A DNA stretch of 34,838 bases from a virus (IMGVR_UViG_3300027804_000053); one strand, 5' to 3'; counted from the first letter of the stretch, positions 3 through 18,703 are shown. Numbers and translations are program-made. The notes: a model not told the origin generated them from the letters alone.

Positions 3-3000
3 ACTGGAACAAGTGGAACTTCGGGTACTTCAGGTACAACTGGAACAAGTGGAACTTCGGGTACTTCAGGTACAACGGGAACATCAGGTACATCTGGCAC
101 ATCAGGCACAACAGGTACAAGTGGTACATCAGGAACATCAGGCACATCTGGCACAACAGGTACAAGTGGTACTTCAGGTACAAGTGGAACAACTGGAACA
201 AGTGGAACAACAGGTACCTCTGGCTCAAGTGGTACATCAGGTACGACAGGTACAAGTGGAACCTCCGGCACTAGTGGTACATCTGGTACGACGGGTACTA
301 GTGGAACGTCAGGAACATCCGGTACAACAGGTACTAGTGGTACTTCGGGAACATCTGGCACAACAGGTACTAGTGGAACATCAGGTACATCTGGCACAAC
401 AGGTACTAGCGGAACATCAGGTACATCAGGTTCATCAGGGACTAGCGGTACTGATGGAACTTCAGGAACAAGTGGAACATCAGGTACATCTGGAACCAGC
501 GGAACAACGGGAACATCCGGTTCAAGTGGTACTTCAGGTACAACTGGTACTTCAGGCACTTCAGGCACATCAGGAACAAGTGGCACTTCAGGTACAACTG
601 GTACTTCAGGTACGTCAGGAACCTCTGGAACAACGGGTACTAGTGGAACATCCGGGACAAGTGGTACTTCTGGTACGACGGGAACAAGTGGTACATCTGG
701 TACAACGGGAACAAGTGGTACTTCAGGAACAAGCGGAACTTCTGGAACAACGGGTACAAGTGGTACTTCAGGTACAACAGGTACAAGCGGAACTTCAGGT
801 ACAAGTGGAACAACAGGTACAAGTGGAACTTCAGGAACATCAGGTTCATCAGGTACAAGTGGAACTGATGGAACCTCGGGTACAAGTGGAACTTCAGGAA
901 CGTCAGGTTCTTCAGGAACAACTGGAACAAGTGGAACTTCGGGTACTTCAGGTACAACTGGAACAAGTGGAACTTCGGGTACTTCAGGTACAACGGGAAC
1001 AAGTGGAACTTCGGGTACTTCAGGTACAACGGGAACAAGTGGAACTTCGGGTACTTCAGGTACAACAGGAACAAGTGGTACATCAGGAACATCTGGTACA
1101 ACGGGTACCTCTGGCACAAGTGGAACTTCTGGTACAACTGGAACTAGCGGTACATCAGGTACTAGTGGAACATCGGGTACAACAGGTACAAGTGGAACTT
1201 CCGGTACTACAGGTACTAGCGGTACTTCTGGAACATCAGGTTCATCAGGAACTAGCGGTACAGATGGAACTTCCGGAACTTCAGGTACATCGGGTACTTC
1301 AGGTACAACTGGAACAAGTGGTACCAGCGGTACATCGGGTACAACTGGAACAAGTGGTACCAGCGGTACATCGGGTACAACAGGTACAAGTGGGACCAGC
1401 GGTACATCGGGTACAACAGGTACAAGTGGGACCAGCGGTACATCGGGTACAACAGGAACATCAGGTACAAGTGGAACTTCAGGCACTACAGGAACATCAG
1501 GTACCAGTGGTTCTTCAGGAACCTCGGGAACCTCAGGCTCTTCAGGGACAAGTGGAACTGACGGTACATCAGGTTCAAGTGGAACTTCGGGAACATCTGG
1601 TACTTCAGGTACAACCGGAACATCAGGTTCAAGTGGAACTTCAGGAACATCCGGAACGACTGGAACTAGCGGTACCTCAGGAACTTCAGGTACTACAGGT
1701 ACATCAGGTACAAGTGGAACTTCAGGAACTACTGGAACTTCAGGAACATCAGGCTCATCAGGAACAAGTGGAACTGACGGTACATCAGGTTCAAGTGGAA
1801 CTTCGGGAACATCTGGTACTTCAGGCACAACAGGAACAAGTGGTACATCAGGTACATCTGGCACAACTGGAACAAGTGGTACGTCAGGAACATCTGGTAC
1901 TTCTGGAACTACAGGAACTAGTGGAACATCAGGAACAAGTGGTTCATCGGGAACAAGTGGAACGGATGGTACATCGGGCACTTCAGGTACTTCAGGTACT
2001 TCAGGTACGTCAGGAACCTCTGGAACAACGGGCACTTCAGGAACCTCTGGAACAACGGGCACTTCAGGTACCTCAGGCACATCTGGAACCTCAGGAACAA
2101 CAGGTACTTCAGGTACATCTGGAACTTCAGGTACGACAGGAACAAGTGGTACGTCTGGTACAAGTGGTTCATCAGGAACAAGTGGTACTGATGGTACATC
2201 TGGAACTTCTGGTACATCGGGAACTTCTGGAACAACAGGTACAAGTGGTACTTCAGGTTCTTCAGGAACAAGTGGAACAACAGGAACAAGCGGTACTTCA
2301 GGTTCAAGTGGAACATCAGGTACTTCAGGAACAACTGGTACATCAGGTTCAAGTGGAACATCAGGTACATCTGGCACAACCGGAACTAGCGGTACTTCAG
2401 GTACATCGGGAACTTCTGGTACAACTGGTACAAGTGGTACTTCAGGAACTACGGGTACATCAGGTTCTTCAGGAACAAGTGGTACAGATGGTTCATCTGG
2501 AACCTCAGGGACAAGTGGTACATCAGGAACATCAGGTTCATCAGGTACGTCAGGTACAAGTGGAACGACTGGTACATCAGGTTCAAGTGGAACGTCTGGT
2601 ACAAGTGGAACATCAGGAACTTCAGGTTCAAGTGGAACGTCAGGTACAAGTGGAACGACTGGTACATCAGGTTCAAGTGGAACATCTGGTACAAGCGGAA
2701 CAACAGGTACTTCAGGAACATCAGGTACGAGCGGAACAACAGGTACTTCAGGAACATCAGGTTCAAGTGGAACATCAGGTACGTCAGGAACTAATGGTTC
2801 TTCAGGAACCTCAGGCACATCTGGTACAACAGGAACGTCAGGTTCAAGTGGAACGTCTGGAACAAGCGGAACAACAGGTACTTCTGGCTCATCAGGTACG
2901 TCAGGTACGAGTGGAACAACAGGTACTTCTGGGTCATCAGGTACGTCTGGCACTTCGGGTACAACAGGAACGTCAGGTTCATCTGGAACATCTGGTACAA

Positions 3001-16504: not shown

Positions 16505-18703
16505 ATGTCTTGTAATTGCCACCATATAGAAATTCCACAATCAGTTCAAACTGATGGTATTAATGAAATATACCTTTGGCAAAAACTTTGTAATGGATAT
16601 TATATTGCAGCTGTTTGGAATGGGGCTCTATTGACTTACATGGATGGAACAACCGCTGTTTATGATATATGTTTAGACAACGAATATGGTATTGAATTTA
16701 GCTATGGATTTAGTGGAACAAAATTAACACCATCGGAAATTCCCTCGATTGTTGTAAACATATTGGGTGATTGTACATTTGATGGAAATTGTTACACACC
16801 ACCAACACCTAGTCAAACTCAGACACAAACTCAAACACCTTCACCAACTCTTACATTGACAGCATCTCCAACCCAAACACCAAGCCAAACTCAAACACCT
16901 TCACAAACGGGCACACCACCACCAACACCTACTCAAACACAAACCCAAACTCAAACACCTTCACCCACAAAAGTTGTCTGTGGTATAGGAGTAACATCTC
17001 AAAGTTTTTATTATTACGACTGTTGTGGAAATCTGATATCATCTACAGGCGCAGGTCAAGAAATTGTTTTCGATTATACAAAACCATATCAAGGAGTAAC
17101 AAAGTTAAATCTTTCGACTTCTACTATTTGTCCAACACCATCACCCACACAAACACCATCTCAAACACCTACTCAAACTCCATCTCAAACTCAAACTCCA
17201 TCTCAAACTCAAACGCAAACCATAACACCTACATCTACCCCTGTACCTACGTGTTCTGCTCAACCAAATTTAGCCAACGAGTGTGAAGTTTTCACTCTAT
17301 TCGATATGGGAGTTCAGTGTAACTTAATTAAAGAGCCAACTGTGGGAAGATTTGATGGTATATTATCGGTTAATGTGACAGGTGGAACAGCACCTTATAC
17401 TTTCTATTGGAATACTGGTGAAAGGACTCAAACCATTTCTAACATACCTTATGGAAGGTACACAGTTCTTGTTGTGGATTATTATGGAGATTATTCCGCC
17501 ACAACTGCGTGTAATATATTGGCTCCAACACCAACAGCTACTACCACACCAACAATCACACCCACACCATCAACAACACCACCTAACGCTCCACCGTTGT
17601 GTTTAAGATTTGTTTCACCACCGAGCTTCGGAGGGTCTGGAGGTTCTGCTATGTATAAGGAATTACCTCTGACTTTCGTAACCTCTGGAAACCAAAACGG
17701 GAAACCAACTTGGTATAATTATTCAAAAAATCTTTCGATTATATGGAATAACTCAGTAACTCCTAACAGATGGGATATAACAAATTGGCCGTATGGAGGA
17801 ACACCTATATCTACAAATCAAGGGACTATACCTGACACAGGATGGCAGTTCTTGGGAACACCTGGTGTTTATTCCCAAATTGTTTCATCAAGAGGTCAAT
17901 GTCCTTCGGTTTCTCCATTAGTTTTTGAATATCAAATAACACCCGCTTCTTGTCCTGGAGTTTGTAATGGAAGTTTGGTTGTTGTGCCAGGAGGTGGAAT
18001 GCCACCATTCAGCTACTCGGTTAATGGTGTTAATTTCCAAAGTTCAAATATTTTTAACAATTTGTGTCCTTCTACTTTCGGTCTCACAATAAAAGATGCT
18101 GTAAATCAAACTTATACACAATCCATAACAATTGGTTCAGGAGCCGCAACTACTTTGCAATTGAAACCTGAAATCATTACAAGTAATGGACCTGTTGCAA
18201 GTGGACCAAGTTTACAAACAGTAACATGGAAAATAACTTCTAATCCACCAATACCTGCTGGTGTTTCTTTAACGGGTCAAATTTTGTTCGAAATTTCACA
18301 AACAGAACAAGGTCCGACTAGCTCTTCAGGTCCAGTAACAACTTATATAATCAATGCATCTAACGTTGCGGTTCAAAATAATTCTACTCTTACTTTAACA
18401 ACGTCTCCTGTTATAACTCAAAGTATTCCAAGTACATGTAATTCGGCTTTAGTTTCAGCATCTAATGAAAATTATTCACAATCAACTCTTGTTACTTTAG
18501 GAAATGGTTTTATTTTGACAGGTACAACTGTTTCATCTTTGAATATTACGGGTGGAATTACTCAATTTAACTGCTCAACCACAGCTAAACAAACAATTTC
18601 GATGACCCTTTCAAATTTCAAAGTTTTAGGAAATCCATGTTATACGGTTCAAACACAGAATTTGGTATTGGTCAATAATCATACTTACACAATTTCAAGT
18701 TAG
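16505..18703 (+). CDS. 732-aa putative virion adhesin with TP tracts and two SprB-like repeats
   Basis: DGILSVNVTGGTAPYTFYWNTGERTQTISNIPYGRYTVLVVD and ITPASCPGVCNGSLVVVPGGGMPPFSYSVNG...NLCPSTFGLTIKDA match the SprB-repeat pattern. Confidence 0.72.
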   Translation: MSCNCHHIEIPQSVQTDGINEIYLWQKLCNGYYIAAVWNGALLTYMDGTTAVYDICLDNEYGIEFSYGFSGTKLTPSEIPSIVVNILGDCTFDGNCYTPPTPSQTQTQTQTPSPTLTLTASPTQTPSQTQTPSQTGTPPPTPTQTQTQTQTPSPTKVVCGIGVTSQSFYYYDCCGNLISSTGAGQEIVFDYTKPYQGVTKLNLSTSTICPTPSPTQTPSQTPTQTPSQTQTPSQTQTQTITPTSTPVPTCSAQPNLANECEVFTLFDMGVQCNLIKEPTVGRFDGILSVNVTGGTAPYTFYWNTGERTQTISNIPYGRYTVLVVDYYGDYSATTACNILAPTPTATTTPTITPTPSTTPPNAPPLCLRFVSPPSFGGSGGSAMYKELPLTFVTSGNQNGKPTWYNYSKNLSIIWNNSVTPNRWDITNWPYGGTPISTNQGTIPDTGWQFLGTPGVYSQIVSSRGQCPSVSPLVFEYQITPASCPGVCNGSLVVVPGGGMPPFSYSVNGVNFQSSNIFNNLCPSTFGLTIKDAVNQTYTQSITIGSGAATTLQLKPEIITSNGPVASGPSLQTVTWKITSNPPIPAGVSLTGQILFEISQTEQGPTSSSGPVTTYIINASNVAVQNNSTLTLTTSPVITQSIPSTCNSALVSASNENYSQSTLVTLGNGFILTGTTVSSLNITGGITQFNCSTTAKQTISMTLSNFKVLGNPCYTVQTQNLVLVNNHTYTISS

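Follow-up and report, generated by a model that had tools for sequence, protein, structure and literature searches.

A phage gene cassette with a TibC/Aah-type domain and the proline-free collagen-like fibre that it may glycosylate

Overview of the cassette and the fibre gene

The viral DNA stretch IMGVR_UViG_3300027804_000053 (34,838 nucleotides (nt), analysed as a whole and hereafter called the window) carries, at positions 3 to 18,703, a gene for a collagen-like fibre, a cassette of glycosyltransferase (GT) and methyltransferase genes, and three genes for proteins with Thr-Pro (TP) tracts. Judging from its domains and its genomic neighbourhood, the cassette is probably a phage-encoded cytoplasmic protein O-glycosylation system, whose substrate would be the phage's own proline-free (Gly-Thr/Ser-Ser/Thr)n fibre. 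The enzyme was met together with such a fibre in many unrelated phages, which makes it most likely that this phage covers its own fibre with sugar. A preliminary description of the same DNA stands in part: the enzyme family and the link to a Ser/Thr collagen fibre were retained, while heptose as the sugar and the TP proteins as the substrate set were not.

The stretch is organised in three transcription blocks, namely the plus-strand fibre open reading frame (ORF), a minus-strand operon forming the cassette (3999-10761, possibly up to 11024), and three plus-strand TP ORFs. The operon genes have overlapping stop and start codons and follow each other in the order GT9 (9817-10761), the gene of a 1717-amino-acid (aa) protein (4667-9820) and FkbM (3999-4670), the FkbM start overlapping the stop of the preceding 1717-aa gene at 4667-4670. 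In the preliminary description, three genes with two FkbM methyltransferase, five GT and one pyruvyltransferase domains had been placed between a Gly-X-Y protein with more than 700 Ser/Thr and three TP-tract proteins; profiles and fold prediction gave the same domain count, and all elements were located where they had been described. No membrane segment was predicted in the cassette proteins (maximum KD19 1.23), which fits cytoplasmic action, as with TibC.

Related loci were collected from IMG/VR, which was searched with the last domain of the 1717-aa protein; 156 relatives were confirmed and 80 were fetched (58-70% identity), and all counts out of 80 loci refer to these. The features of the fibre gene and the cassette are listed below, with the evidence in brackets.

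3..3965, plus strand: collagen-like fibre gene, 5' end open (composition, codon-position entropy, PF01391, phrog_17490)
3-3485, plus strand: fibre repeat region, 387 G-[T/S]-[S/T] triplets (composition, PF01391)
3498-3962, plus strand: non-repeat C-terminal knob of the fibre (phrog_17490/28536, fold matches)
3970..3997, both strands: bidirectional hairpin terminator common to the converging fibre gene and cassette (11-12-pair stem, T runs on both strands)
3999..4670, minus strand: stand-alone FkbM-family methyltransferase, 223 aa, last cassette gene (PF05050 35 bits, TIGR01444 51 bits)
4667-9820, minus strand: 1717-aa six-domain protein (Pfam, NCBIfam, fold prediction)
9221..9820, minus strand: N-terminal FkbM methyltransferase domain, aa 1-200 (PF05050 36 bits, match aa 27-145; 16/80 loci)
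8501..9220, minus strand: GT25 domain, aa about 200-440 (PF01755 28.5-34 bits against a cut-off of 24, match aa 214-300; 8/80 loci)
7616..8503, minus strand: GT-A fold glycosyltransferase domain, aa 440-735 (AF2 and Foldseek; 70/80 loci)
6791..7618, minus strand: polysaccharide pyruvyltransferase-like domain, aa about 735-1010 (PF04230, match aa 813-923; 1/80 loci)
5696..6793, minus strand: GT4 (GT-B) domain, aa about 1010-1375 (PF00534 50 bits, match aa 1178-1327; fused upstream of BAHT in 77/80 loci)
4670..5698, minus strand: TibC/Aah-type (BAHT) domain, aa 1375-1717 (TIGR04414 285 bits, match aa 1385-1715)
9817..10761, minus strand: stand-alone GT9-fold glycosyltransferase, 314 aa, with an N-terminal GLGD motif (PF01075 41.5 bits)

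The visible fibre protein has 1320 aa and starts beyond the window edge. Its 387 Gly-X-Y triplets run without interruption (GTS 265, GTT 72, GSS 38, GTD 8 and GTN 3), and Ser and Thr (349 and 440, together 789) make up 60% of the protein. Among the 1161 repeat residues there are 8 Asp and no Pro, and the first 1165 residues contain 8 charged ones; the features that stabilise the helix (Pro/Hyp or charged pairs) are thus missing from the repeats. Gly is invariant through the 387-triplet register, and PF01391 (collagen triple-helix repeat) matched with 33 bits. At the DNA level, GG was invariant in 387/387 repeat units, AC was nearly invariant, and the third codon positions had the top entropy (1.4-1.7 bits); since the third positions are the most variable, GG is invariant and the frame continues into a conserved domain, the reading frame is real.

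This conserved C-terminal domain comprises 155 non-repeat residues and matched phrog_17490 (E 4.6e-40) and phrog_28536. Its fold was compared via matches over 65-69 residues with the Pam1 tailspike (Z 8.1), AP22 gp53 (Z 6.4) and the R2 pyocin fibre (Z 6.1), the model having a pLDDT of 68. In BFVD, phage 'collagen triple helix repeat' proteins, a minor tail protein and a P-SSM2 tail-fibre-like protein were matched, the tail-fibre-like matches at E 1e-4 to 1e-11. As modelled, the knob appears closest to the distal beta-sandwich tips of phage fibres and tailspikes, which fits a virion appendage without proving it.

The six-domain architecture of the 1717-aa protein is the richest among the 80 relatives and includes the rare pyruvyltransferase domain, for which PF04230 scored 45-48 bits (45.5-48.3) against a cut-off of 25.3, the match being confined to positions 124-272 of the 280 in the profile. 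The core of GT-A, GT4 and TibC-like domains was present in 70, 77 and 80 of the 80 loci, a stand-alone GT9 gene in 10/80, and FkbM, GT25, GT9 and pyruvyltransferase are sporadic modules. The GT9 protein of the window has no TibC-type N-terminal domain and is 19% identical to the BAHT domain. For aa 430-740 of the 1717-aa protein no Pfam or PHROGs match was found, and the GT-A domain was identified by structure (AF2 pLDDT 92; 87 PDB matches at E<=1e-3, GT6 enzymes first). The nearest structures are the GT6 enzymes ABO GTA/GTB and alpha-1,3-GalT (Foldseek E about 1e-4, TM about 0.5); membership in GT6 is not claimed because sequence identity is only 10-13%. A DSD motif (Asp540 onward; alignment positions D101/D103/S104) was invariant in 27 GT-A homologues.

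The TibC/Aah-type domain

The last domain of the 1717-aa protein matched TIGR04414 (hepto_Aah_TibC) with 285.1 bits against a cut-off of 200, over profile positions 27-373 of 374, and no TIGR04414 match was found in 14 control genomes. TibC (PDB 4rap) matched the domain with E 2e-51, and profiles of lipopolysaccharide (LPS) heptosyltransferases gave 22-25 bits against cut-offs of 134-185. The domain had been called BAHT-like in the preliminary description, and this identity was confirmed by the score above the curated cut-off and by the presence of the catalytic residues.

The roles of the residues (Asp110, Thr226, Lys230, Trp305, Arg286 and Phe265/Val266) were taken from the TibC structure paper (PMC4358343). 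TibC Asp110, Thr226, Lys230 and Trp305 correspond to Asp1454 (nt 5459-5461), Thr1566, Lys1570 and Trp1634, and across 70 dereplicated phage domains the catalytic Asp and the Thr/Lys/Trp phosphate and sugar contacts showed little or no variation. In addition, the iron-finger residues Cys339/342/358/370 have their counterparts in Cys1669/1672/1688/1700 with the same spacing, invariant in 70/70 phage representatives (iron binding is predicted). By its sequence, the last domain is a true TibC/Aah relative with its catalytic residues intact.

The family, the catalytic Asp, the phosphate and sugar contacts and the four-Cys finger are therefore shared with the E. coli pairs TibC-TibA and Aah-AIDA-I (TIGR04414; PDB 4rap/4rb4; PMC4358343). 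Shared as well is a soluble cytoplasmic enzyme encoded beside a highly repetitive Ser-rich protein, and the E. coli enzyme hyperglycosylates its neighbour. The architecture is different, TibC/Aah being free enzymes of about 400 aa and the phage version being the last of six domains. PF21129 (TibC_1st beta-barrel) was not reported for the window protein, and the TibC alignment begins at residue 61.

Linkage of the enzyme gene to Ser/Thr collagen genes

Among the fetched loci (for the downstream side, those with at least 9 kb of flank), a collagen-like ORF converging on the enzyme gene was found downstream in 32/39 loci and upstream in 2/59. After dereplication at 95%, a collagen gene was present downstream in 27/34 and upstream in 4/38. 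All 27 dereplicated collagens are of the type G-[T/S]-[S/T/N], with T (68%) and S (18%) in the X position and S (72%), T (12%), N (7%) and D (5%) in the Y position. In four of the five exceptions examined, G-T-S repeats were found at another place on the record, in three cases about 1 kb past the end of the fetched flank.

The link was also followed in the reverse direction, with viral contigs picked only for at least 10 consecutive G-[TS]-[TS]-type triplets, which gave 44 searchable records. TIGR04414 matched in 15 of these 44 (14 above the cut-off) and in 3 of the 4 records at least 90% complete, and in 10/15 a Ser/Thr collagen gene was present in the fetched surroundings of the enzyme (about 10 kb on each side). 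The preliminary description had named co-occurrence and synteny as its check and a cassette independent of Ser/Thr-rich structural genes as the refuting case; the comparison was carried out and did not refute the link, which holds in both directions.

In a complete 321-kb relative (G001), the sole Ser/Thr collagen (Ser plus Thr 57%) adjoins the enzyme, and three other collagens about 40 kb away are of the G-A-Q type (Ser plus Thr 12-15%). Two chemically different collagen classes thus occur in one phage, and only one of them is linked to the glycosyltransferase. The three distant collagen genes are S74-capped, are of G-A-Q/T type and lie at 267771-275168 of G001 (L095-L096).

The pairing was also found in more distant phages. 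In the cultured Microcystis phage Mel-JY01 (PP395634.1), the enzyme is 38% identical and contains the GT4-BAHT fusion, just upstream there is a (G-T/S-S)n collagen ORF, and a Ser-rich 'structural protein' is encoded between the collagen ORF and the enzyme gene; a weak PF21129 match was obtained for this homologue. In the 735-kb huge phage LR756501, the enzyme is 47% identical, and a G-T/S-S collagen ORF lies about 4 kb from the GT4-BAHT gene. The collagen ORF of Mel-JY01 is on the plus strand at 2-3052 (about 800-1000 aa), and the minus-strand 'hypothetical proteins' of the GenBank record at 1-651 and 739-2298 are its antisense shadows. For experiments on the module, Mel-JY01 is the best system available.

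More than 538 relatives of the enzyme were found in bacterial genomes, where Ser/Thr collagen neighbours also occur. In Gammaproteobacteria/Methylococcales chromosomes, stand-alone TibC-like genes (L250, L252, L264, L269, L281 and others) adjoin short Ser/Thr collagen ORFs of 15-40 triplets. These chromosomal pairs mean that the pairing is not restricted to phages.

Proposed mechanism of fibre glycosylation

For the acceptor, the site, the order of steps (priming, extension and capping), the sugar and the presence on the virion, we infer the following scheme. The TibC/Aah-type domain would link the first sugar to hydroxyls of Ser/Thr in the repeats, most likely at the near-invariant Ser of the Y position. 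This sugar would be extended by the GT4 and GT-A domains, which in most relatives form one chain with the TibC/Aah-type domain. The lineage-variable modules, namely GT25, the second GT9, the two FkbM methyltransferases and the pyruvyltransferase, would diversify and cap the glycan. The product would be a glycan-coated virion appendage ending in a beta-sandwich knob, and the fibre would reach at least about 330 nm if a canonical triple helix forms. A plausible purpose would be to stabilise and solubilise a collagen helix that lacks Pro and charge pairs. Glycosylated Thr stabilises Riftia cuticle collagen, and BclA is glycosylated in its collagen-like region.

Several observations weigh against this scheme. 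What the family is known to glycosylate is a beta-helix and not a collagen repeat: in the TibC/Aah systems the acceptor is the neighbouring beta-helical autotransporter and the donor is ADP-heptose, whereas the window contains no autotransporter and the neighbour is a Gly-X-Y fibre. The neighbourhood of enzyme and fibre genes is linkage, not an enzyme-substrate relation, and the fold matches of the knob are borderline (Z 6-8) with a model pLDDT of only 68.

The same holds for the residues that set donor and assembly in TibC, where Arg286 bonds adenine N1, explaining the use of an ADP-sugar, and the thumb tip Phe265/Val266 holds the dodecamer together (PMC4358343). At the position of Arg286 the phage domain has Thr1615, with Thr in 56/70 phage representatives and Arg in 4/70. 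The thumb-tip residues are deleted, no counterpart being present around TibC 264-267 and 272-277, and the thumb region comprises 23 residues against 33 in TibC in 56/70 representatives (a 10-residue deletion). In addition, the E. coli systems use ADP-heptose, whereas in four complete relatives of 317-321 kb neither GmhA nor an HldE-type match above the cut-off was found. NTP_transferase was likewise not found in these four genomes.

Donor and oligomeric state may therefore differ from those of the characterised family, and, since Thr stands in place of the Arg that reads the adenine in TibC, the first sugar could be one other than heptose. Heptose, named as the sugar in the preliminary description, is disfavoured by this replacement and by the search of the four complete relatives.

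Two SDR sugar epimerase/reductase-like genes distant from the cassette were present in 3 of the 4 complete relatives. In the 321-kb relative they are adjacent (G001 87990-89907; L086 7990-9907) and are the only sugar-nucleotide genes found there, with GDP-fucose synthase and heptose epimerase as best matches, all far below the cut-offs.

Whether the loss of Arg286 goes with a collagen neighbour was also tested. The raw numbers look suggestive, domains without Arg having a collagen neighbour in 54 cases and none in 15, and domains with Arg in 12 and 26 cases, respectively. They permit no inference, however, because the tree shows only about 4 changes of the Arg state and there are only 2-4 independent pairs. 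Likewise, Ser/Thr collagen neighbours in bacteria occur mostly beside enzymes without Arg (14/29 versus 5/51), which, given the same few changes, is a clade property and not an independent correlation.

A bolder version of fibre glycosylation can be offered only tentatively, and we consider it possible but doubtful. The phage branch of TibC/Aah would have changed both acceptor and donor, the enzyme being fused, non-dodecameric and not dependent on ADP-heptose. A sugar would be placed on nearly every triplet of (Gly-Thr-Ser)n, extended and capped with methyl and pyruvate groups by the fused domains, which would enable a stable triple helix, that is, a glycan-dependent collagen forming fibres of hundreds of nm on jumbo-phage virions.

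If the fibre is indeed glycosylated by the cassette, hundreds of aquatic phages, including jumbo phages and at least one cultured cyanophage, would coat very long proline-free collagen-like fibres with this enzyme family, the substrate range of which would widen from beta-helices to Gly-X-Y repeats. This might explain how a collagen can be stable when Pro and charge pairs are lacking. It would also provide a cheap single-polypeptide glycosylation machine that is directly testable in E. coli, and it would be of relevance to the adsorption, particle stability and antigenicity of phages in natural waters.

Alternative explanations

The TP-tract proteins, which had been put forward as substrates in the preliminary description, could be the main or additional acceptors on mucin-like linkers (11136-18703). 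The three genes are as follows.

11136..14957, plus strand: TP-tract protein 1, 1273 aa, 39 Cys, five TP tracts (tracts 502/1273 residues; sole match phrog_15511)
15143..16471, plus strand: TP-tract protein 2, 442 aa (tracts 233/442 residues)
16505..18703, plus strand: TP-tract protein 3, 732 aa, two SprB repeats (tracts 192/732 residues; PF13573 44.5 bits)

TP tracts are classic O-glycosylation sites in other systems, and the TP genes adjoin the cassette and are divergently transcribed from it. In the closest clade TP-rich ORFs flank the enzyme, at loci L019 and L029 a TP-rich ORF is its immediate neighbour, and in the complete 321-kb relative 4 of the 11 TP-rich ORFs are no more than about 16 kb away from the cassette. 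However, these four form one tandem cluster and are thus not independent, the 11 sites are scattered across the whole genome, and at L019 and L029 G-T-S repeats are still present, about 1 kb outside the flank. Only in the closest clade are TP-rich ORFs found beside the enzyme; outside it (L021 onward) most loci have none nearby, and the collagen gene persists. As a specific substrate set the three proteins were therefore given up and this alternative is unlikely: the TP proteins are neighbours whose tracts are a lineage-wide habit, and they are possible as extra substrates.

Another explanation is that the cassette makes or alters a host surface glycan (LPS, capsule or other) during infection, for example in superinfection exclusion or release, the adjacency of the fibre being a matter of genome organisation only. 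Serotype-converting glycosyltransferases of phages exist and provide a precedent. According to the Pfam descriptions, the GT25, GT9, GT4 and pyruvyltransferase families are best known from LPS and polysaccharide synthesis. Against this, no membrane segment, flippase, polymerase or lipid-priming enzyme was found in the cassette, and the last domain scores above the cut-off of a protein-glycosylating equivalog and not above those of the LPS heptosyltransferases, with the bit scores given above. A role in host glycans also gives no reason for a two-way link to one type of collagen across distant phages, and we regard it as improbable.

It is similarly improbable that the TibC-like domain alone glycosylates the fibre and that the other domains are passengers acting on other virion proteins, small molecules or DNA, without a single assembly line. 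The accessory modules do vary, with FkbM in 16, GT25 in 8, GT9 in 10 and pyruvyltransferase in 1 of 80 loci, but GT4 and GT-A are in one chain with the TibC-like domain in 77/80 and 70/80 loci, and the GT4-BAHT fusion is met again in Mel-JY01 and LR756501; the fact that they are fused speaks for a common product. The idea that the cassette as a whole glycosylates DNA was set aside, the last domain belonging to a protein-modifying family and base-modifying enzymes being absent from the cassette.

Comparison with known glycosylation systems

To our knowledge, TibC/Aah-type protein heptosyltransferases are known only as partners of proteobacterial autotransporter adhesins, and mycobacteriophages, with their unrelated enzymes, are the only phages in which self-glycosylation has been demonstrated. 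In the literature searched, no paper was found on a phage TibC-type enzyme or on its pairing with collagen-like fibres. The window contributes the six-domain architecture, the finding that the TP proteins lack a specific link, the differences at Arg286 and in the thumb counted over 70 representatives, and the reverse-direction test.

For mycobacteriophages, Freeman et al. are said to have shown experimentally in 2023 that the phage glycosyltransferases modify the phages' own structural proteins on Ser/Thr-rich stretches. Common to both cases are phage-encoded GTs on the phage's own Ser/Thr-rich structural proteins, which for the window is a proposal. The enzyme families are different, the mycobacteriophage targets are C-terminal extensions of capsid and tail-tube proteins and not collagen-like fibres, and the hosts are Actinobacteria. 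The study of Freeman et al. is reference 80 of PMC12582341.

BclA of the Bacillus anthracis exosporium differs from the window fibre in the Pro of its repeats (GPT), in enzymes unrelated to BAHT, and in its location on a spore surface and not on a virus. The similarity lies in a prokaryotic collagen-like filament with O-linked glycans on Thr-containing repeats, the Gly-X-Y repeats of BclA carrying O-linked, methylated oligosaccharides (Daubenspeck et al. 2004, as cited in PMC9614988).

Mimivirus likewise encodes collagen-like proteins together with an enzyme that glycosylates them (L230), as is proposed for the phage. The animal collagen galactosyltransferase GLT25D1 belongs to CAZy family GT25, the family of one domain of the window protein (8501-9220). 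L230 hydroxylates Lys and glucosylates the hydroxylysine of collagen-like proteins, and its transferase domain resembles GLT25D1 (PMC9614988). L230 thus acts on hydroxylysine, whereas the repeats of the window fibre contain no Lys; the priming family is also another one, and the setting is a eukaryotic giant virus and not a tailed phage. Since the fibre has no Lys, the GT25 resemblance to L230 and GLT25D1 cannot mean the same reaction.

Neighbouring genes and minor observations

The window is phage DNA, with genes from 21 kb on for a RuvC-like resolvase, primase, exonuclease, SbcCD, DNA methylase, sigma factor and amidase. In the protein atlas, the sigma factor gave no indication of the host. 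With blastn, 7.5 kb of the window gave no match in 50,697 phage records. Two weak hints point to a host in the Bacteroidota: the SprB repeats (PF13573) of TP-tract protein 3 are of the Bacteroidota gliding adhesin type, and the nearest match of the enzyme in a cellular bin is a 2.3-kb contig (L237) binned with a Chitinophaga metagenome-assembled genome.

Directly after the TP genes, a 749-aa ORF (18742-20991) had no Pfam or PHROG match and was present in 1/80 related loci (within the fetched flanks). Upstream of the GT9 gene, one further ORF is possibly the first gene of the operon.

10845..11024, minus strand: 59-aa ORF, possibly first operon gene (TATTTATA motif 4 nt upstream of ATG)

This ORF is a candidate operon leader, and its membership in the system is putative. 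Sigma-70-type promoter matches in the window (39, against 34 in shuffles) were not above the shuffles. The motif TAnTTATA occurs 16 times in the window (7.8 +/- 2.8 expected), including sites at 11029-11036 (minus strand), 11109-11116, 16486-16493, 18730-18737 and 29671-29678, each placed 4-19 nt upstream of a start codon, namely those of the 59-aa ORF, TP-tract protein 1, TP-tract protein 3, the 749-aa ORF and the DNA methylase. TAnTTATA may be a phage promoter or a leaderless-start element common to the cassette and its neighbours.

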